Source of the DNA: a virus
Virus record (IMG/VR): IMGVR_UViG_3300045988_007161
Span: 29,437 to 93,436 of that record
Reading direction: 5' to 3' (one strand)
DNA length: 64,000 bases
A program made the translations under genes and the position numbers. Below the pieces are notes generated by a model that searched no databases, was not told the DNA's origin, and saw only the letters and a list, made by a program, of their open reading frames with translations. Below, piece by piece: positions 3,601 to 61,704 of this stretch (position 1 is its first letter; each line of letters starts with the position of its first letter).

Positions 3601-6600
3601 AGATATAAGGAGGTTCATGCTCCTGCCCTCAGACTGAATACTAAGGCTACTTATAAAGGTGAGAGAATTGGTAGGGATTGGGAAAGAACCATCTACTTGA
3701 AGGATGATGAGATAGTATCTTCTGTACTTGAGGACATCAAGACTGTACTTGATGAAAGGGTTAGAAGAAATGAAATGACCAAGATAGACAGAGATAATAT
3801 TATCAGCAAGTTTAGAAATGTGAATGTAGCAGATGCTCAGGCATATAGAAGTTTGAGTTCCTATAGGGCAATACTTGGTATGTCAGGTCAGTGGACAGAT
3901 GATATGGAGCAAGCATATAACAACTTCAAGAATGGAGATTGGAATATTAAAGACTTCAATATCATTTGGCAGACTAAGAAGCCTTATGTTTATACACAAG
4001 TCAATAATAACAGTGGCATTGAAGGTCATACTGGAATTAAGACTCCTGTACAACATAAGAACTCAGAGTTCCTATTACTTGCTATGTACGAACTAATTGC
4101 TGGTCCTTTAGGAAGGTCAGGCAAGCTGAAAGCCATAAATAAGTTTATGGAGGATAATCAGATTGATGTAGTTCAGTTTGAATCTACTACTAAGGTTGGA
4201 AAACAAGGTGTAATAGATTTGAATGATGTTAATACAGAGGCTGATGTAATCCAAAGACTTAAAGATACTACAGGTATTGGATTTGGTAATGAGAATCCTA
4301 ATGTGGTACATAAGGTATCCTATGAAGATTATGGTATTCAGACTGCAACCCCTGAACATGCTATTGATGCAGTTCAGTTGGTAGGTACTCAGATTAGAAA
4401 GCTAATTACTGCTGACATCTCTGATGACACAATCATTGAAGTTAATGGTAAAAAGATGACTAAGAAGGAGTGGCTTGACCTATATAATGCCATCAATACT
4501 GAGAATATTCTTCAAGCATTTGCTGATGTAGATAAAATATTCAAAGACCCAAAGAAGGTAGAAGAAATCTTACTTGAAGAGATAAGAGGTAATCAAAGAT
4601 ATGGTATGGATATGATGAGGGCTTGTACTCTTGATGAGAACAATAACTTCAATATACCTCTCTTTGACCCTGTGCAATCTCAAAGAGTACAGACACTTCT
4701 TAATAGTGTAATCAAGAGTAGAATCACTAAACAGAAGATTAGAGGAGGAGCTTTAATTCAGGTATCTGATTATGGCTTGACTGATGAACTTCATGTAGTA
4801 TTCAAGGATAAAAATGGCAATCTGATGTCTTGGGAGTCATATTCCAAGAAGAATAAAAATGCTACAAGAGAAAATTATGAAGAGTATATAAAGAAAGCAA
4901 GGGAAGAAGGTAGTTTAGCTATAGCATATTTAGAGTGTTATATGCCTGCATATAGTAGAGAGTTCTATGAGCCTCTAATGGACCCAAATACTCACCAGCT
5001 TGATGTAACTAAACTTCCTGAGGATTTGAGAAAGTTGATTGGATATAGAGTCCCAACAGAGGATAAGTACTCAATGGCTCCTCTGTATATTAAGGGATTC
5101 CTTCCTCAACAGAATGGTTCTGCAATCATGCTTCCTGCTGAGATTACTACTCTATCAGGTTCTGACTTTGATGTGGATAAGATGTATATCATGTTACCTG
5201 AGTTCAGAGTCAAGAAGTTTGATATGAGACAGGCAAGAGAAGACTATGCAAGAATGAATAGCTTATTCAATCAAGTATTGTCACAATTCACTCATAGCCA
5301 GTTGGCAGAAGATATTCTCAATGCAGATACTGATGACTTTAAGGAATGGTTCAAGGAGAATAAGGAGAAGTACAGACTTGCCAAGCCTATTATAAGTAAG
5401 GTAAAGTATGACTTCAATAAGTCTCCACAGGAGAATAGTCTTGAGGCAAGAAATAACTTGCTGATAGATATGATGTATGGAGTCTTGACTAATGCAGATA
5501 CAGCTTCAAAGATTCTTAACCCGGGTGGTTTTGATTATCAGAAGAAGTCTGCAAGAATAATGACTATTCTCAATGATTCTTATGAGGGTGACTTGGCTCA
5601 AGCATTAAAGGATATGGGTATAGAACTTAATAAGACTGTACAGAAAGGTGGAAAGTCTTATCCTAAGTCTATTGCTTCATACCTATTTGACTTAGACCTT
5701 GACACTCTTGATAAGTTGGCAGAGAAAACAAAGGTCAAGATGGACCCATTATCACCAAGAACTCAGGTGATGCTACATCAACAAAACATGACTGGTGCTA
5801 AGTTGATTAGTATTTATGCCAATCATAATGCAAACCATGCTTTGATGCAACATACTCAGTTAGCTTTGGATGAAGAAAATGGCTCATTTGTATTGAATGG
5901 AAAGAGACTTACATCTTTACATGATATTATGAATGGTGACAAGGAATTTATCTCAAAGAATAATGCTGGATTCTTGGCTGCTTCTGTGGATAATGTTAAA
6001 GACCCTGTGCTTGCAGCACTTAATCAGAATACTTTCACTGCTGATGCTTCTATGCTTCTTTCAAGATTAGGTTATAATCCTATTGAGATAGGTCTGCTAA
6101 TGATGCAGCCTATAGTTCAAGAGATTACTCAGACCTATTTTAGAGAGAGTAGAGAAGGTAAAGGTAAAGATACTATCATTGATGAAGTACTGGATAAGTA
6201 TAAGGAGAAGGCTGCTCTTAATAATGACTTGACTTATGATAACTACAAGAATAATAGCTTCTACATTGAAGAGCTTGCAGATAACATAATGCTTGCTAAG
6301 GAAGCTGTTACTGACAGGTCTCAGACTTCTGATTTCAGAAAGATTGAGTTCTATCAGAAACAAGTTGCAGTTGGATATTTGTTCAAGAGAATTATGAACT
6401 CTGCTGATGCTTTGGGACAGTTAGTACAGGCTACAAGGTCTGATACCCAAGGAGGTGCTGCTGGTCCTACTATTGCAGATACAGAGTTGAAGATGCAGAA
6501 AGTGAAAGACCTGTTAGACCAAATAGAGAATAATGACAAGTTCCCATTGAAGAATGCCAATGTAATACTTGATGGTCTGTTATCAGACAATCCTGACACT

Positions 6601-7965
6601 GACACTCTAAGAGAAAGACTATTGTCAGCTCCTCTTCCTTTCTTACAGGCTTTCTATACTCTTGGCTTGCAGAAGACAGAAGAAATGTTAGGGTCTTATT
6701 TCCCTCAATATACTGAATCATTCAGGACTGTAATTGATGACCTTAGAGACATGACTAAGACTGGTAAGTTGAATGTAAAGACTATGAATAGTATTTATAA
6801 TGACTTGCTTGCCTATATCATGTCAAAGAATGGATTCTTTGGTTCTGAATTGATTGTAAACCCTGACTCAGAAGTAGGTGATATTATTGTAACTTCCTCT
6901 GATAAGAGAAAGGATTTCATCAATAACTTCCCTGAATACTTCAAGAGAGTGGTTGCAGATAATGAGGATATAGCTGACCTTGAATTTATTAAGAGACTCA
7001 AGGTAATCAGGGCAAATGACAGTAATCCTGTAGACCCAGTAGTGTTTAAGAATGTAGGTCAGTTAAGTCCTACTTTGAGAGAAAGATATATGAGGGATTG
7101 GGCATCTCTATTATATATGAATAACCCAGAAGCTCAGAAACTTGCTCTTAATCTATTCAGATATAGCTATTATAGAAATGGCTTTGCATTTGGACCTTCA
7201 ACCTTCATCCATTTGGCACCTGTGGCAGTGAGAAATGCTATCCCAGAGTACATAAGTACATTGAGAACTCTCTTGTCATCAAGTGATGATTATAGTCAAT
7301 TTGTAGACCAATATGTCTATAACCACTTGGATAACAGAAAGTTGGTTCCTGAAATCCCTGATACAGCCTCTGTCCAGTTCATAGGAGAGGATAATGAAGT
7401 TAAGGATGAAGTTACATTTGTGATTGATGATAATGCTACCTTTGGAGATAAGAAAGTTATCAAGAAAAGGATAGATACTCCTGATGGTCCTGCTTATGAC
7501 TTCTTTAGGTATATAGGTAAGAGAATTAGAGGAAACTATGTCTATTACAAACTAACTTCATTAGGTACTGAACAAACTAATGTTGCAACCTATGAAAGGA
7601 TTGAACCATTAGGTTTCAGAAACAGCTTTATTGAATATGAATATGGCAAGGATGTGGAAGAGATGGAAACTGTAATTGATAAGAACAGGAAAGATTATGA
7701 CCCTTATGCAGATACATTGTCAAGATTTGACCTTGGAGATGCTGAGGTTGATTATGACTCTATGCCTGATTATCAAGATATGCCTCAAGAGTATTGGGAT
7801 TCTATTCCAGAAGTAGATACTGATGCTTTCCAACAGGTATATGGTACTCCTCTTGATACTTCAGCTCCTAAGGCTGATGATGTAACAGCTATTCAGCCTA
7901 ATACAGAGTATAAGGATGAGAATGGTGATAGTATTTGTGGTGCTCCAACATTATATAGTTTATAA
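634..7965 (+). CDS. virion-packaged DNA-dependent RNA polymerase (crAss-like vRNAP, 2443 aa)
   Basis: Giant uninterrupted ORF with ...LSGSDFDVDKMYIMLPEF... (DFDVD at 5164-5178). This matches the DxDxD catalytic loop of crAss-like single-chain double-psi-beta-barrel RNAPs. Confidence 0.8.
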   Translation: MSCLIITPEIRELAKKFPNETEQSILNLVGLWQEKNNKSIEDIPLGSELNDFIKELRSSEATEQLDEALSSSFNTPRITSVEEQQKVDLLFDPRTRRDRVTLIARLFSNEVDNDLQEMTDSLKRRIDDASGVEKEELQAELNSLDRFSVIKKYTPAGIFKRVANIFNSYVQDTEEGRIQQELNAINSRKGADKFSDEQKLESAKKKAAYKNQEYKKIVDDPYVYKALAEEASTLLVMTEGIRIDPNYIAPADANLNDDDPDGNSEVDNEAEDWRQEEAYKDGWMTNFRQVSSHESLSQAVRKVIRKVPKLDYRGKYEKDDLGFTRYLDADYVHATFIDKLRNMINSDDMLPLMQDLQRIKPWVKQVTKLLQGNETLFSQFYQDFRKDFMPYWIQKKKMMTDGTFKMETIAINKPEGVYYLLDAWRDNYEKGVQLDDDSVYEKNGEINKDNAAKGLQWTETLNNMFQNLDTESRLQLLERGDVWSTIMKLLHMLGIDANPSVLKTALTDIKTAPGITFTDPIMLLLPQLNVIFSGIKKGEVKSETREDGTEKRGDLINTFGSAYNMIASMMAEVTEDAIESSVRENDKSYYSHVTPNYLGKLIKNLKNVMNDKERFEQFMQTEFKDYEWFFKDGHWRNDWLRQLAESDELRKGLNHKAVLNSDKVDYTNWDDLDYTLALLTEYWGDPDSAKSSIKYAWYHVPILSDSPSAEFIRFRKYTTGDVLDENGKKRTYDDVILDKLVDLVNQEYDRIMLVRERDEAYQSGDKSVEPIANYDIVRKKDGSIKSMGGAEFKFLPALNSLRYDNGETFIDRLSRLKSKGTGAELRNFLRTTLNDMMEDGFEQTYRDWMRAGLLDELPNGKYKYLPFEGQSKQNAITAKALIKAKDALGSLWNTNMELMLRAYNNNSAFDSREASSLMEQIKALLTDKATRGEMELKDAQSISRSLFVKNNAKDALREYYWNSKLATSQIIQLTTTDLAFYKNLEDFQKRYKEVHAPALRLNTKATYKGERIGRDWERTIYLKDDEIVSSVLEDIKTVLDERVRRNEMTKIDRDNIISKFRNVNVADAQAYRSLSSYRAILGMSGQWTDDMEQAYNNFKNGDWNIKDFNIIWQTKKPYVYTQVNNNSGIEGHTGIKTPVQHKNSEFLLLAMYELIAGPLGRSGKLKAINKFMEDNQIDVVQFESTTKVGKQGVIDLNDVNTEADVIQRLKDTTGIGFGNENPNVVHKVSYEDYGIQTATPEHAIDAVQLVGTQIRKLITADISDDTIIEVNGKKMTKKEWLDLYNAINTENILQAFADVDKIFKDPKKVEEILLEEIRGNQRYGMDMMRACTLDENNNFNIPLFDPVQSQRVQTLLNSVIKSRITKQKIRGGALIQVSDYGLTDELHVVFKDKNGNLMSWESYSKKNKNATRENYEEYIKKAREEGSLAIAYLECYMPAYSREFYEPLMDPNTHQLDVTKLPEDLRKLIGYRVPTEDKYSMAPLYIKGFLPQQNGSAIMLPAEITTLSGSDFDVDKMYIMLPEFRVKKFDMRQAREDYARMNSLFNQVLSQFTHSQLAEDILNADTDDFKEWFKENKEKYRLAKPIISKVKYDFNKSPQENSLEARNNLLIDMMYGVLTNADTASKILNPGGFDYQKKSARIMTILNDSYEGDLAQALKDMGIELNKTVQKGGKSYPKSIASYLFDLDLDTLDKLAEKTKVKMDPLSPRTQVMLHQQNMTGAKLISIYANHNANHALMQHTQLALDEENGSFVLNGKRLTSLHDIMNGDKEFISKNNAGFLAASVDNVKDPVLAALNQNTFTADASMLLSRLGYNPIEIGLLMMQPIVQEITQTYFRESREGKGKDTIIDEVLDKYKEKAALNNDLTYDNYKNNSFYIEELADNIMLAKEAVTDRSQTSDFRKIEFYQKQVAVGYLFKRIMNSADALGQLVQATRSDTQGGAAGPTIADTELKMQKVKDLLDQIENNDKFPLKNANVILDGLLSDNPDTDTLRERLLSAPLPFLQAFYTLGLQKTEEMLGSYFPQYTESFRTVIDDLRDMTKTGKLNVKTMNSIYNDLLAYIMSKNGFFGSELIVNPDSEVGDIIVTSSDKRKDFINNFPEYFKRVVADNEDIADLEFIKRLKVIRANDSNPVDPVVFKNVGQLSPTLRERYMRDWASLLYMNNPEAQKLALNLFRYSYYRNGFAFGPSTFIHLAPVAVRNAIPEYISTLRTLLSSSDDYSQFVDQYVYNHLDNRKLVPEIPDTASVQFIGEDNEVKDEVTFVIDDNATFGDKKVIKKRIDTPDGPAYDFFRYIGKRIRGNYVYYKLTSLGTEQTNVATYERIEPLGFRNSFIEYEYGKDVEEMETVIDKNRKDYDPYADTLSRFDLGDAEVDYDSMPDYQDMPQEYWDSIPEVDTDAFQQVYGTPLDTSAPKADDVTAIQPNTEYKDENGDSICGAPTLYSL

Positions 7966-29416: not shown

Positions 29417-29504
29417 CTTAATTCTGGCTTCCTACTTGTTATTCCAATATATACCTTATTTGATGGTGATATATGTCTATAAACACACCAAGTATCCTGC
29501 ATAG

Positions 29505-54136: not shown

Positions 54137-54150
54137 ATTATCTAAATTAG

Positions 54151-54237
54151 TTGCGGAGGGTGGACTCGAACCACCAACACAGTATTACTGCTTCTCAAGG
54201 TTATGAGCCTTGCATGTTTCCATTACACTACCCCACG
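54151..54237 (-). tRNA. tRNA with CAU anticodon, C1-A72 mismatch, A73 and a 20-nt class-II-type variable arm (87 nt)
   Basis: CGUGGGG-UA-GUGU-AAUGGAA-ACAU-G-CAAGG-CUCAUAA-CCUUG-AGAAGCAGUAAUACUGUGUU-GGUGG-UUCGAGU-CCACC-CUCCGCA-A. Confidence 0.7.
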
Positions 54238-54248
54238 ATGTATATTTG

Positions 54249-54320
54249 AGCAGATAGTGGGAATCGAACCCACACATTAACATTGGAAGTGTTACATACT
54301 AACCTTTATACTATACCTGC
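54249..54320 (-). tRNA. tRNA-Gly(UCC)
   Basis: Hand-folded cloverleaf: acceptor GCAGGUA/UAUCUGC, anticodon loop CUUCCAA, T-loop UUCGAUU, U73. Confidence 0.85.
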
Positions 54321-54325
54321 ATTTG

Positions 54326-54398
54326 AGTAGATAATCAGATTTGAACTGACCCCTTGACATTGGCAATGTCATATGCTAACCACTAACACCATACCTAC
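54326..54398 (-). tRNA. tRNA-Gly(GCC)
   Basis: Acceptor GUAGGUA/UAUCUAC, anticodon loop UUGCCAA, T-loop UUCAAAU, U73. Confidence 0.85.
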
Positions 54399-54404
54399 AT
54401 TATG

Positions 54405-54478
54405 AGCCTCCTGAAGGATTTGAACCCTCTCTTCCTGTTTACAAGACAGGCTTGCTAAACCATTAACACTAAGGAGGC
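54405..54478 (-). tRNA. tRNA-Thr(UGU)
   Basis: Acceptor GCCUCCU/AGGAGGC, anticodon loop CUUGUAA, T-loop UUCAAAU. Confidence 0.85.
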
Positions 54479-54481
54479 AAA

Positions 54482-54569
54482 TGGTACTCCCACTGGGAGT
54501 TGAACCCAGACAACCATTGCTGATTGACAGATTTTAAGTCTGTTGTGTCTACCATTCCACCATGAGAGC
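54482..54569 (-). tRNA. tRNA-Leu(UAA), class II, CCA encoded
   Basis: Acceptor GCUCUCA/UGGGAGU, anticodon loop CUUAAAA, 17-nt variable arm, ends A-CCA. Confidence 0.85.
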
Positions 54570-54577
54570 ATCTCTTG

Positions 54578-55024
54578 TCAATAAGGTCTTATATCACATA
54601 AGTGGAATAAGTAGTCATACTTATTGATATTCTGAATAAAGGTTTCACATTCAGATGTTATACCTTTATAAACAGTCTCTTGAGGAATCTTATCATAAAA
54701 TGCAAGAGTAGCAGACTTAACTTCACTAATAAAGTCAAAAGCATTCAGTGCATCACTCGGAGTTCCCTTGATAGCATTAGGTTGCATTTTACCAAGTATT
54801 CCCATATATCCTTCTGCAAGACCATCCTGATAATCATCCAAAATGTCCTTAAATTCATCAAGATATACATGAATATTCTTCTTAGGTGCTGCCCAATGCA
54901 AGTTCTTACACTTAGTCTTCCAACCTTCAAGTTGATTTAAGAAGTTAATAAAGAACTGAGAACCAGATACTTCTGTACTTCTGCTTGATTCCATTGGAGT
55001 AAATAGGCTATCTTCTTCAAACAT
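54578..55024 (-). CDS. Dps/ferritin-like four-helix-bundle protein (148 aa) embedded in the tRNA array
   Basis: FLNQLEGWKTKCKNLHWAAPKKNIHVYLDEFKDILDDYQDGLAEGYMGILG fits the Dps pattern (..HWnv.G..F..lH..lde.y.....D.iAER...LG). Has its own promoter. Confidence 0.45.
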   Translation of the reverse strand: MFEEDSLFTPMESSRSTEVSGSQFFINFLNQLEGWKTKCKNLHWAAPKKNIHVYLDEFKDILDDYQDGLAEGYMGILGKMQPNAIKGTPSDALNAFDFISEVKSATLAFYDKIPQETVYKGITSECETFIQNINKYDYLFHLCDIRPY

Positions 55025-55042
55025 ATTCTCTTATTTTGATGT

Positions 55043-55075
55043 TGCAAAGTTAAGCAAAATAATTGGAACTACCAA
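55043..55075 (-). promoter_or_regulatory. Bacteroidota-type promoter (TTG-N20-TAACTTTGCA) for the Dps-like gene
   Basis: Minus-strand TAACTTTGCA at 55043-55052 and TTG at 55073-55075. Confidence 0.55.
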
Positions 55076-55108
55076 ATGTTTTCCTAATTACTTTCAAATT
55101 ATTTTTAG

Positions 55109-55197
55109 TACCCTCTAAGAGACTCGAACTCTTACACTACTATTACTTCATACTGGAGCCTAAATCCAGCGTGTCTACCAAATTCCACCAAGAGGGC
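55109..55197 (-). tRNA. tRNA-Leu(UAG), class II
   Basis: Acceptor GCCCUCU/AGAGGGU, anticodon loop UUUAGGC (G37), long variable arm. Confidence 0.85.
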
Positions 55198-55205
55198 ATT
55201 ATAAG

Positions 55206-55291
55206 TACTCCTGAAGAGAGTCGAACTCTTAATCTTTATTCCAAGCCCTGACTTTTGAGGTCAGTGTGTATTCCAATTCCACCACAGGAGT
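55206..55291 (-). tRNA. tRNA-Leu(CAA), class II
   Basis: Acceptor ACUCCUG/CAGGAGU, anticodon loop CUCAAAA, long variable arm. Confidence 0.85.
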
Positions 55292-55297
55292 ATATAG

Positions 55298-55372
55298 TGG
55301 GTACTCAAAGAATCGAACTTTGTTCTAAGGATTTTCAGTCCTCCGCAATGTAACCATACCTGCCCAGCACCC
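55298..55372 (-). tRNA. tRNA-Phe(GAA)
   Basis: Acceptor GGGUGCU/AGUACCC, anticodon loop CUGAAAA, T-arm CAAAG-UUCGAUU-CUUUG. Position 8 is G. Confidence 0.8.
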
Positions 55373-55440
55373 ATAATGACTTATTTGTGTCTCTACCCAC
55401 ATCACCTTCCATAAGTCAAGGACAAAGATTTCTATTGAAG

Positions 55441-55523
55441 TGGGGCAGAAAGGAATCGAACCTTAAACAGCCTGAGGCAGTGGATTTACAGTCCACACTA
55501 ATTCACCACATTAAAGCTACCCC
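55441..55523 (-). tRNA. tRNA-Tyr(GUA), class II
   Basis: Acceptor GGGGUAG/CUGCCCC, anticodon arm GUGGA-CUGUAAA-UCCAC, 14-nt variable arm. Confidence 0.8.
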
Positions 55524-55559
55524 ATATAATATTTATTATTCACTCCAGCATCAAAGGAA

Positions 55560-55667
55560 CTATATTCCAACTGGAATAGTTCCTGTAGGTGTCCAAGCAT
55601 AAGTCTTAGCAGCTTGTCTAAAGTATGCCTTAGCACCTCTCTTAATTAATGAAATAACCTTTCTCAT
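55560..55667 (-). CDS. possible 35-aa basic peptide inside the tRNA array
   Basis: MRKVISLIKRGAKAYFRQAAKTYAWTPTGTIPVGI*. The listed 63-aa ORF overlaps tRNA-Lys, so only the internal Met is plausible. Ends in a strong hairpin (55556-55583). Confidence 0.2.
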   Translation of the reverse strand: MRKVISLIKRGAKAYFRQAAKTYAWTPTGTIPVGI

Positions 55668-55700
55668 AACATTAAAATTTGGAGTTAATAATATGTTATG

Positions 55701-55773
55701 TTCCCCCATAAGGAGTCGAACCTTACTCTCAGGATTAAAAGTCCAGAGCATCCACCATTAATGCTTTGGGGGA
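55701..55773 (-). tRNA. tRNA-Lys(UUU)
   Basis: Acceptor UCCCCCA/UGGGGGA, anticodon loop CUUUUAA, one U-U mismatch in the anticodon stem. Confidence 0.8.
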
Positions 55774-55795
55774 ATATTTGCCAAGGTTGAGGTTG

Positions 55796-55869
55796 TGCTC
55801 CCACAAGGACTTGAACCTTGAGTCCCCTGTTTAAGAGACAGGTGCTTTAACCAATTCAGCTATAGGAGC
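55796..55869 (-). tRNA. tRNA-Lys(CUU)
   Basis: Acceptor GCUCCUA/UGGGAGC, anticodon loop CUCUUAA. Confidence 0.85.
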
Positions 55870-55877
55870 TTATTAAG

Positions 55878-55951
55878 ACTTGGAGGTGGGACTTGAACCC
55901 ACGAATCATCAGATTTGTAGTCTGTGCCATTAGCCACTCTGGTACTCCAAG
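55878..55951 (-). tRNA. tRNA-Cys-like with anticodon ACA (A34) and U73
   Basis: Perfect acceptor CUUGGAG/CUCCAAG, perfect T-arm GUGGG-UUCAAGU-CCCAC, anticodon loop CUACAAA. Confidence 0.7.
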
Positions 55952-55955
55952 ATAG

Positions 55956-56032
55956 TACTGGCAGAGGGGATTGAACCCACATGCAACCTATTACCCTTTC
56001 TACTGTGTATAAGACAGAGGGGATATGCCAGT
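55956..56032 (-). tRNA. non-canonical tRNA-Ile-like (UAU): anticodon hairpin sits where the D-arm should be and a D-loop-like GG hairpin lies 3' of it
   Basis: ACUGGCA-UA-UCCCC-UCUGU-CUUAUAC-ACAGU-AGAAA-GGG-UAAUAGGUUGCAU-GUGGG-UUCAAUC-CCCUC-UGCCAGU-A. Confidence 0.6.
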
Positions 56033-56036
56033 ATAT

Positions 56037-56113
56037 TGGGGTGTTAGATGGGATTTGAACCCATACCCTCCTGATTCACAGTCAGGACTTCTAACCAATT
56101 AAAATACTAACAC
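56037..56113 (-). tRNA. tRNA-His(GUG), CCA encoded, no encoded G-1
   Basis: Acceptor GUGUUAG/CUAACAC, C73, CCA, anticodon loop CUGUGAA. The base 5' of G1 is U. Confidence 0.8.
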
Positions 56114-56115
56114 AG

Positions 56116-56187
56116 TGCTGATGGAAAGACTCGAACTTTCAACTACTGCCTTATGAGAGCAGCCTTCTACCATTGAAGTACATCAAC
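56116..56187 (-). tRNA. tRNA-Met(CAU), elongator-like (or Ile2 if lysidinylated)
   Basis: Acceptor GUUGAUG/CAUCAGC, anticodon loop CUCAUAA, canonical arms. Confidence 0.8.
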
Positions 56188-56208
56188 TAATACTCTTCTT
56201 GACCAATG

Positions 56209-56285
56209 TTGGGATGGTGAGAATTGAACTCACCTGTAACCAACTACTCTTTCAACTGCTTATCAGACAGAGGAGATACATCCCA
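56209..56285 (-). tRNA. non-canonical tRNA-Ile-like (GAU), paralogue of 55956-56032 with the same rearranged architecture
   Basis: UGGGAUG-UA-UCUCC-UCUGU-CUGAUAA-GCAGU-UGAAA-GAG-UAGUUGGUUACAG-GUGAG-UUCAAUU-CUCAC-CAUCCCA-A. Confidence 0.6.
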
Positions 56286-56291
56286 ATATAG

Positions 56292-56364
56292 CTGAGAAGG
56301 TAGGAATTGAACCCACAACTGCTGGTTTTGGAGACCAGTGTTCTACCAATTGAACTACTTCCCA
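56292..56364 (-). tRNA. tRNA-Trp(CCA)
   Basis: Acceptor UGGGAAG/CUUCUCA (G3-U70 wobble), G73, anticodon loop CUCCAAA. Confidence 0.85.
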
Positions 56365-56370
56365 ATTTAG

Positions 56371-56443
56371 TTGCAGGTAGTGGATTTGCACCACTGGTCT
56401 CCCCATTATGAGTGGGGCAAGATTACTACTTCTCCAACCTGCT
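56371..56443 (-). tRNA. tRNA with CAU anticodon, A1-A72 mismatch and an unusual T-loop UGCAAAU
   Basis: AGCAGGU/ACCUGCA acceptor with unpaired 1:72. Anticodon arm CCCCA-CUCAUAA-UGGGG. Confidence 0.7.
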
Positions 56444-56552
56444 AAAACATCAAATCATTGATTACTTCTCCTTATTGCACTCAGAGAACTTTCAGAAATG
56501 ATGGCATCAAGTATTGCAAGCTACTTGACTGAACCTCTTGCAAAAGTTCTTG

Positions 56553-56624
56553 CGGGACCTGTAGGACTCGAACCTACATCTGAGGGTTAACAGCCCACTG
56601 TTCTAACCTTTGAACTAAAGACCC
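56553..56624 (-). tRNA. tRNA-Asn(GUU)
   Basis: Acceptor GGGUCUU/AGGUCCC (one U-U), G73, anticodon loop CUGUUAA. Confidence 0.8.
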
Positions 56625-56632
56625 ATAACTTG

Positions 56633-56706
56633 TTGCTCCTATAGGAATTGAACCTATGACCTTTTCCTTGTAAGGGAACTATTCTAAACCACTGAACTAA
56701 GGAGCA
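56633..56706 (-). tRNA. tRNA-Val(UAC)
   Basis: Acceptor UGCUCCU/AGGAGCA, anticodon loop CUUACAA. Confidence 0.85.
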
Positions 56707-56792
56707 TTGATAGGGTAGTTTCTTTAACCTCTAACTACCCAAAAGAGGGTCCAAGCAAAAGCTCAACATTATGAAAACATGAAAACATAGTG

Positions 56793-56866
56793 TGGAGAAT
56801 GAGGGATTTGAACCCTGAACTCCTCCTTGCAAGGGAGGTGTGTTAGCCAATTACACCACAAACCCC
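56793..56866 (-). tRNA. tRNA-Cys(GCA), possibly degenerate
   Basis: Good anticodon arm CCUCC-CUUGCAA-GGAGG and D-arm, but the acceptor GGGGUUU/AUUCUCC has two U-U mismatches, there is a 3-nt 8-10 linker, and position 73 is A rather than U. Confidence 0.55.
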
Positions 56867-56871
56867 ATTAG

Positions 56872-56944
56872 TATAGTAGACAGGACTCGAACCTGCATCC
56901 TCTGCATCCCAAATGCAGTGCCCCACCAATTAGGCTACTACTAT
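56872..56944 (-). tRNA. tRNA-Pro(UGG)
   Basis: Acceptor AUAGUAG/CUACUAU, anticodon loop UUUGGGA (G37), A73. Confidence 0.85.
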
Positions 56945-56950
56945 ATATTG

Positions 56951-57036
56951 CGGAGAGCAGTGTACTTGAAACACATACCATTGCTGGTACAATCTGTTTA
57001 GCAGACAGTCCCTAAGACCTCTTAGGTTTACTCTCC
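56951..57036 (-). tRNA. tRNA-Ser(GCU), class II with an atypical D-arm (6-bp stem, 4-nt loop)
   Basis: GGAGAGU...CCUAAG-AGGU-CUUAGG...CUGU-CUGCUAA-ACAG...variable arm UACCA-GCAA-UGGUA...G73. Confidence 0.7.
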
Positions 57037-57075
57037 ATTTTCCTTCACCAATATGTCAAAGAACACCTATTATTG

Positions 57076-57160
57076 CGGAGAGATGAGGTCCCGACCCCCA
57101 AGCATTTTACTGCTCAATCTGTTTTCAAGACAGTTCCCAGTCCCACTGAGTTACCTCTCC
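57076..57160 (-). tRNA. tRNA-Ser(UGA), class II with an atypical D-arm (5-bp stem, 5-nt loop) and non-canonical T-loop GUCGGGA
   Basis: GGAGAGG...CUCAG-UGGGA-CUGGG...CUGU-CUUGAAA-ACAG...UGGGG-GUCGGGA-CCUCA-UCUCUCC-G. Confidence 0.7.
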
Positions 57161-57214
57161 ATTTGCCTACCTACCTCTGTAGGATAGGACTTTAGTAGAT
57201 TAAAAGTGGATTAG

Positions 57215-57287
57215 CAGGATGTGGGAGAATTGAACTCCAATCTCCTGATTGACAGTCAGGCACATTAACCACTATGCTACACACCCT
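57215..57287 (-). tRNA. tRNA-Asp(GUC); best fold has an 8-bp acceptor and 4-bp T-stem
   Basis: AGGGUGUG/CACAUCCU, G73, anticodon loop CUGUCAA, T-arm GGAG-UUCAAUU-CUCC. Confidence 0.75.
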
Positions 57288-57293
57288 AAGTTG

Positions 57294-57365
57294 TAGAGCT
57301 ATTGGGAATTGAACCCAAATTTCTGCCTTGAGAGGGCAGTTACCTAACCATTAGTAGATAGCTCC
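57294..57365 (-). tRNA. tRNA-Glu(CUC)
   Basis: Acceptor GGAGCUA/UAGCUCU, anticodon loop CUCUCAA. Confidence 0.85.
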
Positions 57366-57374
57366 ATTTATTTG

Positions 57375-57448
57375 TATTGGGTATGGGACTTGAACCCATA
57401 ATCTCCACATTGAAAGTGTGGTGACTTAACCACTTCATCTAACCCAAC
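57375..57448 (-). tRNA. tRNA-Glu(UUC)
   Basis: Acceptor GUUGGGU/ACCCAAU, anticodon loop CUUUCAA. Confidence 0.85.
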
Positions 57449-57454
57449 ATTTAG

Positions 57455-57526
57455 TACCCTCTATAGGAATCGAACCTATATTCTAAGTTTAGAAGACTCA
57501 TGTACTATCCATTGTACTAAGAGGGC
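57455..57526 (-). tRNA. tRNA-Arg(UCU)
   Basis: Acceptor GCCCUCU/AGAGGGU, anticodon loop CUUCUAA. Confidence 0.85.
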
Positions 57527-57544
57527 ATCTTCTCTATTACTTTG

Positions 57545-57617
57545 TTACCCCAATAAGACTCGAACTTATGTTACAGGAGCCAAAATCCCGTGTAATAACC
57601 AACTATACTATGGGGCA
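57545..57617 (-). tRNA. tRNA-Gln(UUG), first gene of the array
   Basis: Acceptor UGCCCCA/UGGGGUA, anticodon loop UUUUGGC. Confidence 0.85.
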
Positions 57618-61620: not shown

Positions 61621-61704
61621 GAATGTATAGCTTAATGGTAAAGCAGCGTAGTACCACTTCAAAACAATGAGAGCAAGATGTAGGTTCAACTCCTACTGCA
61701 TTCC
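61621..61704 (+). ncRNA. tRNA-like RNA with good acceptor, D- and T-arms but no foldable anticodon stem (34-nt central region containing CUUCAAA)
   Basis: GAAUGUA-UA-GCUU-AAUGGUA-AAGC-A-[GCGUAGUACCACUUCAAAACAAUGAGAGCAAGAU]-GUAGG-UUCAACU-CCUAC-UGCAUUC-C. Confidence 0.45.

Follow-up and report, generated by a model that had tools for sequence, protein, structure and literature searches.

The 64,000-nucleotide (nt) stretch of viral DNA examined here (positions 29,437 to 93,436 of IMG/VR record IMGVR_UViG_3300045988_007161, referred to as the window) comes from a crAss-like phage related to crAss001 and Kehishuvirus, and its minus-strand tRNA array contains two genes, X1 and X2, whose elements do not follow the order of the tRNA cloverleaf. 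With a probability of about three in four, these genes are read from their sequences as working isoleucine tRNAs of the phage, probably charged and used in decoding, and as members of a phage-borne structural class that is widespread and has a permuted core. A broader proposition is modestly favoured, namely that this class is translationally active in hundreds of phages, ranging from Crassvirales of the gut to phages of Streptomyces, serves Ile and some Arg codons, and keeps its D/anticodon domain permuted in the mature RNA while still adopting an L-shape. It would then be a topological isomer of tRNA that all standard annotation tools have overlooked. The features of the two genes, all on the minus strand, are listed below with RNA positions in brackets.

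X1, 55956..56032, minus strand: complete 77-nt gene, putative permuted-core tRNA-Ile, anticodon UAU, no encoded CCA
X1 RNA (56032->55956): ACUGGCA UA UCCCCU CUGU-CUUAUAC-ACAG UAGAAA GGG UAAUAGGUUG CAU GUGGG-UUCAAUC-CCCUC UGCCAGU A
56026..56032, minus strand: X1 acceptor stem 5' strand (RNA 1-7), seven Watson-Crick pairs with 55957-55963 (RNA 70-76)
56020..56022, minus strand: X1 helix strand a (RNA 11-13, CCC), pairs with RNA 37-39; would equal canonical D-stem 3' strand 23-25
56003..56017, minus strand: X1 anticodon stem-loop (RNA 16-30, CUGU-CUUAUAC-ACAG), anticodon UAU at 56009-56011
55997..56000, minus strand: X1 linker G33-A34-A35-A36, between anticodon stem and helix strand b
55994..55996, minus strand: X1 helix strand b (RNA 37-39, GGG), pairs with RNA 11-13; would equal canonical D-stem 5' strand 10-12
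55984..55993, minus strand: X1 D-loop-like segment (RNA 40-49, UAAUAGGUUG), would equal canonical positions 13-21
55964..55983, minus strand: X1 connector C50-A51-U52 and T arm (RNA 53-69, GUGGG-UUCAAUC-CCCUC), U52 as the putative Y48; Rfam alignment
55956, minus strand: X1 discriminator A77
X2, 56209..56285, minus strand: complete 77-nt gene, putative permuted-core tRNA-Ile, anticodon GAU, no encoded CCA
X2 RNA (56285->56209): UGGGAUG UA UCUCCU CUGU-CUGAUAA-GCAG UUGAAA GAG UAGUUGGUUA CAG GUGAG-UUCAAUU-CUCAC CAUCCCA A
56279..56285, minus strand: X2 acceptor stem 5' strand (RNA 1-7), seven Watson-Crick pairs with 56210-56216
56273..56275, minus strand: X2 helix strand a (RNA 11-13, CUC), pairs with GAG at 56247-56249
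56256..56270, minus strand: X2 anticodon stem-loop (RNA 16-30, CUGU-CUGAUAA-GCAG), anticodon GAU at 56262-56264
56250-56253 and 56247-56249, minus strand: X2 GAAA linker and helix strand b (GAG)
56237..56246, minus strand: X2 D-loop-like segment (RNA 40-49, UAGUUGGUUA)
56217..56236, minus strand: X2 connector C50-A51-G52 and T arm (GUGAG-UUCAAUU-CUCAC); Rfam alignment
56209, minus strand: X2 discriminator A77

The arms and boundaries that an earlier note had read from the letters of the window are borne out by the sequence. Both genes possess a seven-base-pair (bp) acceptor stem followed by an unpaired discriminator, a T arm with a 5-bp stem and a loop of the form UUCAAUY (UUCAAUC in X1 and UUCAAUU in X2), and an anticodon arm whose 7-nt loop follows the pattern C-U-NAU-A-N and includes U33 and a purine at position 37; the T stem of X1 has a single U54.U68 mismatch. 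What both genes lack is the D-arm hairpin between positions 9 and 26. As the note had also observed, the anticodon hairpin begins 6 nt after U8-A9, and a D-loop-like GG segment, UAAUNGGUUR, lies 3' of the anticodon arm, just ahead of the T arm. The two genes are 74% identical, and the helix formed by positions 11-13 and 37-39 differs between them by a compensatory change from C12:G38 in X1 to U12:A38 in X2.

Standard tRNA detection passes both genes over. ARAGORN called 26 genes in the window with neither X1 nor X2 among them, and it made no call on the permuted-core genes of the window, of locus L212 (a phage locus discussed below) or of Kehishuvirus tikkala. At the gathering threshold the Rfam tRNA model RF00005 likewise reported neither; under a relaxed threshold it aligned X1 and X2 end to end at 27.1 and 27.7 bits, below the cut-off of 29, with the D-arm deleted (4 nt against 15 in the model) and an 18-nt insertion in the variable region. 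Even at a permissive threshold, tRNA was the sole Rfam family that matched them. A covariance model (R1) constructed from 31 diverse permuted-core members scores X1 at 92.3 bits and X2 at 92.1 bits, while all canonical tRNAs of the window score at most 20 bits, a separation of the two classes of approximately 70 bits. With scores below the RF00005 threshold and no D-arm between positions 9 and 26, X1 and X2 do not count as standard cloverleaf tRNAs, yet they display every other tRNA feature examined in sequence. The remaining tRNAs of the array were all found in the normal arrangement by ARAGORN and Rfam, as the note had stated.

The secondary structure of the class is recovered by three independent routes. 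Since nearly all copies are exactly 77 nt long, 125 unique 77-mers could be aligned without gaps, and an all-against-all mutual information analysis of this alignment, to which no structure was supplied, placed in ranks 1-16 the acceptor, anticodon-stem and T-stem pairs together with 12:38, 11:39 and 42:52. All seven acceptor pairs and all four anticodon-stem pairs covary, and covariation is also present in the T stem. RNAalifold predicted an identical secondary structure, and in controlled pair counts on two sets 98.4% and 98.5% of positions were paired, compared with 34-49% when partners were slid; for the 98.4% set, sliding by 1-3 columns gave 34-45%. None of 500 shuffles reached the observed pairing. 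The search patterns do not account for the conservation: when only the 5' half served for retrieval, G33-A34-A35-A36-G37, U40-A41, G45-G46-U47 and C50-A51 are invariant (37/37), and when only the 3' half did so, U8-A9, C13-C14, C20-U21 and A23-U24-A25 are invariant (117/117). In addition, U59, C60 and the G57:C65 pair of the T arm are invariant, and the discriminator is A in 125 of 125 sequences.

The helix between positions 11-13 and 37-39, which had been proposed from the two copies in the window, is upheld, with 99.6-100% of its positions paired. In the 125 sequences both 12:38 (C:G 88, U:A 33, A:U 2, G:C 2) and 11:39 (C:G 98, A:U 22, U:A 5) are 100% Watson-Crick, the alignment that includes Arg-type members adds one G:C at 11:39, and 13:37 undergoes compensatory changes in divergent members. 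Among 87 distinct sequences retrieved with a pattern that leaves positions 8-32, 38 and 39 free, pairing in the helix reaches 99.6%, and two-sided changes occur at each of its three pairs. Comparisons between close relatives give the same picture, with both sides of 12:38 changed in 199 comparisons and one side in none, and both sides of 11:39 changed in 30 and one side in none. A third association, 42:52 (A:U 86, G:C 25, other 14), changes on both sides in 69 comparisons and on one side in 6; X2 itself has G:G at this position, one of six such cases among the 125 unique sequences. Covariation therefore backs helix 11-13:37-39 and, judged from sequence, appears to reveal a tertiary pair of the Levitt kind at 42:52.

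The GG segment is supported as a D-loop that could dock on the T-loop, as the note had suggested, since every hallmark of such a loop can be recognized in the sequences: A41, G45 and G46 never vary, and the covariation of R42 with Y52 resembles that of R15 with Y48. The segment U40-A41-R42-Y43-N44-G45-G46-U47-(N48)-R49 would represent canonical positions 13-21, with equivalents of A14, R15, 16-17, G18-G19, 20-20a and A21, and Y52, the base directly 5' of the T stem, would represent Y48, so that R42:Y52 would reproduce the R15:Y48 Levitt pair. Segment length varies on both sides of GG, after it in 76-nt forms and before it in one 78-nt form; these sites match those of a D-loop because canonical D-loops vary in length there. 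The positional equivalents of U8-A14, R15-Y48, G18-Psi55 and G19-C56 include U8, A41, G45, G46, U59 and C60, all invariant. Furthermore, G37-N38-N39-U40 would correspond to canonical 10-13 and U10-N11-N12-C13 to 22-25, and with these correspondences G37:C13 would be the conserved G10:C25 pair. By the same reasoning C14 would be position 26, U15.U31 would be 27:43 and N32 would be 44.

The note had described the D-loop and anticodon arm as having swapped positions. The element order is indeed non-canonical, but only the 5' D-stem strand and the D-loop have moved; since the 3' D-stem strand stays before the anticodon arm, the D-stem encloses that arm. From established tRNA tertiary structure, the arrangement would be best described as an internal circular permutation of tRNA positions 10-45, with the break of this block between 21 and 22 and the GAAA linker joining 45 to 10. 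Contacts of canonical tRNA include the triples 9-12-23, 10-25-45 and 13-22-46 as well as 8-14-21, and the new junctions (9 to 22, 45 to 10 and 21 to 46) would join residues that are in contact in the canonical L-shape. Because the new junctions would join touching residues, the D-stem could still stack on the anticodon stem and the D-loop could still dock on the T-loop. Circular permutations usually arise when part of a sequence is duplicated in tandem and the redundant ends are then lost, and this is a plausible origin for such a gene.

The genomic setting of X1 and X2 is that of ordinary array tRNAs. The minus-strand array (54150-57617) comprises 24 tRNAs called by ARAGORN and a tRNA-Thr found by Rfam, and X1 and X2 fill two gaps in which neither program made a call. 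The gene order Lys-Lys-(Cys)-Ile-His-Met-Ile-Trp is conserved among related phages: crAss001 and cr85_1 carry canonical tRNA-Ile(UAU) and tRNA-Ile(GAU) genes in the X1 and X2 slots, and Kehishuvirus tikkala has a canonical UAU gene in the X1 slot and, in the GAU slot, an unannotated 77-nt homologue 88% identical to X2. X1 lies 4 nt from its neighbour on each side and X2 lies 21 nt and 5 nt from its own, spacing that is typical of a co-transcribed array. CCA is encoded by 0 of the 26 minus-strand array genes (the 24 ARAGORN calls with X1 and X2), and X1 and X2 resemble their neighbours in this respect, as none encodes it. ARAGORN and Rfam found no Ile tRNA besides X1 and X2 in the window's array, and Ile makes up approximately 6.3% of codons in the window's long open reading frames (ORFs), with AUU at 29.3, AUC at 11.9 and AUA at 21.7 per 1000.

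X1 and X2 share only 55-65% identity with the canonical orthologues whose slots they occupy, compared with 77-81% identity to the gene of the same type in Streptomyces phage Mildred21 and up to 87% to environmental copies, while the flanking tRNA-His is 99% identical to that of crAss001. Because X1 and X2 are distant from the canonical orthologues and close to the same type elsewhere, next to a nearly unchanged tRNA-His, the odd form is a distinct conserved lineage that displaced the canonical Ile genes. A local rearrangement of the resident canonical gene was considered and ruled out on these same identities (55-65% to canonical genes, 77-87% to copies in unrelated phages, tRNA-His 99%). The two genes had been called paralogous, but they do not form a private recent pair: identity is 74% between the two and 77-87% to genes of the same type in unrelated phages.

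Three further genes of the array may be mentioned. The tRNA-Cys at 55877-55951 (minus strand) has the anticodon ACA, compared with GCA in its tikkala orthologue; A34 is unusual for Cys, and inosine at this position, if the base is deaminated, could also read UGA. At 54150-54237 (minus strand) lies a CAU tRNA of 88 nt whose variable region is long. The corresponding gene of cr85_1, which stands first in its array, is a tRNA-Met of 71 nt. In all, the window has three CAU tRNAs, one of which could be an Ile2 tRNA of the lysidine type. The tRNA-Thr found by Rfam (54405-54478, minus strand; UGU by eye; 51.9 bits) was missed by ARAGORN.

The class is far wider than the single pair that the note had described. 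Three IMG/VR pattern scans, anchored on different parts of the molecule, yielded 57, 79 and at least 120 loci, and approximately 200 genes reaching at least 78 bits with R1 occur in approximately 190 viral loci among the matches listed. Of the 134 unique permuted-core sequences, nearly all carry an Ile anticodon, while a few have one for Arg. Among GenBank phages, 80 records contain a family gene, comprising 77 Streptomyces phages (approximately 131 kb), tikkala, bajarodcaudo virus 1 and cr130_1. The gene is unannotated in all of these records except those of phage EGole (two records), in which the identical 77-nt span is labelled 'tRNA-Leu, codon UUA' (MK494112.1 75265-75341, equal to L212 395-471). 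This label is a misassignment, because the anticodon loop reads CU-GAU-AA; a Leu anticodon at U40-A41-R42 was ruled out, as its flanks have no U33 or R37 equivalents and R42 covaries with Y52. In both Mildred21 and EGole, whose annotations were read, the family gene directly follows a tRNA nucleotidyltransferase gene.

A scan of prokaryotes with one genome per species (185,579 species) gave 14 matches, of which 8 arose by chance and have no tRNA features. The other six lie on contigs of metagenome-assembled genomes (MAGs): four with phage-style tRNA arrays, one (L093) beside phage genes of tRNA metabolism, and L098. Neither plasmids (72,556) nor complete E. coli genomes (5,426) contained a match. 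Within the scope of a cellular scan that used the narrowest of the patterns, it is well supported that the class is phage-specific. On L093, a 210-kb MAG contig, the permuted-core Ile gene stands beside a gene for a Thg1-like tRNA-His guanylyltransferase (PHROG 4717, E 2e-68) and also adjoins one for a 576-aa RNA-binding protein (PHROG 850, E 8e-77); the coordinates of this neighbourhood are as follows.

L093, 4522-5250, minus strand, and 5636-7366, minus strand: tRNA maturation/repair neighbourhood

Genes with Arg anticodons (UCU, ACG, UCG) and the same architecture were picked up by the Ile model R1 and by an anticodon-blind structural descriptor; the 1.8 Mb searched also contains hundreds of canonical tRNAs, not one of which the descriptor matched. 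Most of them have complementary equivalents of 11-13/37-39 of their own (CAC/GUG, CGU/ACG); L138 has only a short or unclear GC/GC equivalent, and that of L182 is likewise short or unclear. The Arg types share a GAA-type linker and the D-loop segment UAAUUGGA. Members with a CAU anticodon and a CGC/GCG helix are also present, and these could be lysidine-dependent Ile2 or Met tRNAs. In L138 and L045 the Arg-type gene adjoins an Ile-type or CAU-type member, and ARAGORN found no canonical tRNA on L045. One Ile variant, present in L136 and L154, has a different linker.

L027, 634-709, plus strand: Arg-type permuted-core gene
L045, 4361-4438, minus strand: Arg-type permuted-core gene
L073, 9511-9585, plus strand: Arg-type permuted-core gene
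L113, 7912-7987, minus strand: Arg-type permuted-core gene
L119, 2864-2942, plus strand: Arg-type permuted-core gene
L138, 8849-8924, plus strand: Arg-type permuted-core gene
L182, 5487-5565, plus strand: Arg-type permuted-core gene
L045, 4246-4322, minus strand: CAU-anticodon permuted-core member
L140, 12115-12191, plus strand: CAU-anticodon permuted-core member

Working Ile adaptors are the most economical reading of X1 and X2. Where the search left the anticodon free, all 117 sequences retrieved have NAU (U 90, G 25, C 2). It is proposed that X1 and X2 would be co-transcribed with the array, trimmed by RNase P and 3' nucleases, and supplied with CCA, after which host IleRS would charge them through the NAU anticodon loop and A73; X1 would then decode AUA, and X2 would decode AUU and AUC. 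The identity elements of E. coli IleRS include the D-stem pair U12:A23. Because the equivalent of this pair is not conserved in the permuted class, recognition by IleRS would have to rest on the anticodon loop and the acceptor end. It may further be speculated that the altered core lets these RNAs evade some factor, of host or phage origin, by which the canonical D-arm or core is read.

Several observations weigh against this reading, the lost identity pair being one. The anticodon stem consists of four Watson-Crick pairs and an invariant U15.U31 mismatch, one pair below the usual five. Folding of the single sequences does not single out the structure (z-scores of -0.45 and -1.80 for X1 and X2), and the minimum-free-energy structures use registers that have no comparative support. 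All three search patterns were derived from sequences of the class itself. The three-dimensional equivalence is reasoned from textbook tRNA tertiary contacts, and the L-shape would follow from that reasoning. Finally, 11 loci contain both an odd and a canonical Ile gene for one and the same anticodon, which leaves room for a role other than decoding.

Such a role might be that of a tRNA mimic or decoy, whose Ile (or Arg) anticodon loop and acceptor end would bind, titrate or misdirect a host factor such as an anticodon nuclease, a tRNA-modifying enzyme or a toxin, while the abnormal core would keep the RNA off the ribosome. The non-canonical core that Rfam and ARAGORN reject is compatible with this idea, as are the 11 redundant loci, the restriction to a few anticodon families (Ile and Arg) that would be expected of a specific host target, and the adjacency to tRNA repair or maturation genes in some phages. 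It is nevertheless unlikely. Within loci, odd and canonical Ile genes have complementary anticodons in 42 cases, compared with the 11 in which an anticodon is duplicated, and in a further 13 the odd type supplies both anticodons; near-complete arrays whose sole Ile tRNAs are odd genes occur in the window and in 13 other loci. In addition, X1 and X2 occupy the exact slots of the canonical Ile genes of sister phages, and conservation extends to every element needed for contacts with EF-Tu and RNase P and at the elbow, namely the 7/5 acceptor-T branch, A73, the T-loop and G45-G46. Decoding adaptors remain the preferred reading on this evidence.

X1 and X2 could alternatively be flexible D-armless tRNAs of the mitochondrial kind in which the GG segment forms a hairpin in the variable arm and nothing docks on the T-loop. 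Rfam does align the segment as a variable-region insertion, and a 3-4 bp hairpin (39/40-42 with 47-49/50) can be drawn in both genes; the note had counted such a hairpin (40-42:47-49) as paired in both copies. Across the class this hairpin does not hold, as it exhibits no double change or other covariation and is paired at the level of shuffled sequences (74.2% versus 74.3%). The hairpin, with or without 39:50, was accordingly rejected: only 17 of 31 sequences allow the pair A41:N48, and the partner of position 39 is 11 rather than 50. The invariant signature A-R-Y-N-G-G-U, the variation in length around GG as in canonical D-loops, and the covariation of R42 with the base 5' of the T stem, like that of R15 with Y48, also speak for a D-loop, and the D-armless alternative appears more unlikely still than a decoy.

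It is very improbable that the genes encode precursors from which a canonical tRNA is made by cutting and re-ligation or by splicing, as with circularly permuted or intron-containing tRNA genes in algae and archaea. Repair at the RNA level is known for permuted and split tRNA genes (PMC3978253), and some carrier phages encode RNA repair or maturation enzymes. However, the acceptor strands of X1 and X2 already stand in normal order at the ends of the 77-nt unit, canonical order would take two internal cuts and two ligations, and no bulge-helix-bulge motif is evident; to our knowledge, bacteria have no bulge-helix-bulge splicing endonuclease. Helix 11-13:37-39 and the GAAA linker are moreover conserved, for which there would be no reason if the arrangement were discarded. 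Standard finders would also fail if the genes were degenerate pseudogenes, or ordinary tRNA-Ile genes distorted by an error of assembly or sequencing, but both possibilities can practically be dismissed, given 134 unique sequences on approximately 190 independent contigs and in 80 GenBank genomes, many of them independently sequenced isolates, with exact conservation of length and pervasive compensatory substitutions.

Compared with canonical tRNA-Ile (RF00005; genes t11 and t14 of crAss001), X1 and X2 have the same 7-bp acceptor stem, A73, 5-bp T stem, T-Psi-C-type loop, C-U-NAU-A-N anticodon loop, equivalents of A14, R15 and G18-G19, Levitt-like R:Y pair and array slots. They differ from it in that the 5' D-stem strand and D-loop follow the anticodon arm, in the extra GAAA linker and in the invariant U.U at the equivalent of 27:43. 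With D-armless mitochondrial tRNAs (metazoan tRNA-Ser(AGY), nematode) they share a connector of approximately 6 nt from position 9 to the anticodon stem. Mitochondrial D-armless tRNAs are short, flexible molecules in which the D-loop is missing and with it the D/T-loop interaction (PMC7609411), whereas the permuted class retains a D-loop and both D-stem strands within 77 nt and resides in bacterial viruses rather than organelles.

In Cyanidioschyzon merolae and some archaea, permuted tRNA genes place the 3' half upstream of the 5' half and give rise to a canonical tRNA through a circular intermediate (PMC3978253). X1 and X2 resemble them in being permuted at the gene level, but their termini are normal and only block 10-45 is permuted, and for this reason the permutation would persist in the mature RNA. 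Allo-tRNAs, with (8/4) or (9/3) branches, were mined from metagenomes, some from phage tRNA clusters, and have UAU among their predominant anticodons (PMC5389517); they combine changed acceptor and T stem lengths and a long variable arm with normal element order, whereas the permuted class has a 7/5 branch and a changed order. Class II tRNAs (Leu, Ser and bacterial Tyr) likewise contain extra nucleotides between the anticodon and T arms, but theirs form a true variable-arm hairpin beside a D-arm, in contrast to the permuted class, which has neither a conserved hairpin nor a normal D-arm. According to a 2024 paper, all known bacterial tRNAs are canonical cloverleaves (PMC11551756). The note knew of no described class with this element order, and no equivalent layout was found in full-text literature, a scope outside which most subscription journals lie.

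Outside the array, ARAGORN calls one tRNA and a transfer-messenger RNA (tmRNA) on the plus strand of the window. The tmRNA of this crAss-like genome (61788-62173, plus strand) is found by both ARAGORN (tag peptide GNTSYRVAA*) and Rfam (60.6 bits), and adjoining it at 61621-61704 (plus strand) is a tRNA-like gene that Rfam detects at 47.4 bits and ARAGORN misses. Its acceptor stem, D-arm and T-arm are normal, the anticodon arm has 25 nt against 13 in the model, and a CUUCAAA stretch would read UCA; this oddity differs in kind from that of X1 and X2. The window (1-64000) is also extremely depleted of CpG, with 97 CG dinucleotides against 2126 expected (ratio 0.05) and a ratio of 0.99 for the GC dinucleotide, and the residual CpGs are concentrated at 40-44 kb and in the tRNA region. 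CGN arginine codons number zero in the 14 ORFs of at least 250 aa, where AGA and AGG occur at 36 and 12 per 1000, and the only Arg tRNAs of the window's array are Arg-UCU and Arg-CCU.

Few features in biology are as conserved as the order in which the arms of the cloverleaf follow one another, and the known exceptions have arms deleted (mitochondria) or resized (tRNA-Sec, allo-tRNAs), or have the order restored in RNA processing. A full-length, widespread tRNA whose strand threads differently through the same core would, if the reading is true, constitute a new structural class. It would also offer a testable split of recognition by chain connectivity from recognition by three-dimensional shape for RNase P, the CCA-adding enzyme, IleRS, EF-Tu, modification enzymes and the ribosome, and the permuted scaffold may serve the engineering of orthogonal tRNAs. 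For phages, the finding means that tRNA inventories are incomplete, the Ile call being absent from 77 Streptomyces phage records and many crAss-like genomes. If the reading is true, such strict conservation would imply a specific advantage, for example escape from a nuclease or modification enzyme that recognizes the D-arm or core, and the class may thus point to a phage counter-strategy in tRNA-centred conflicts.

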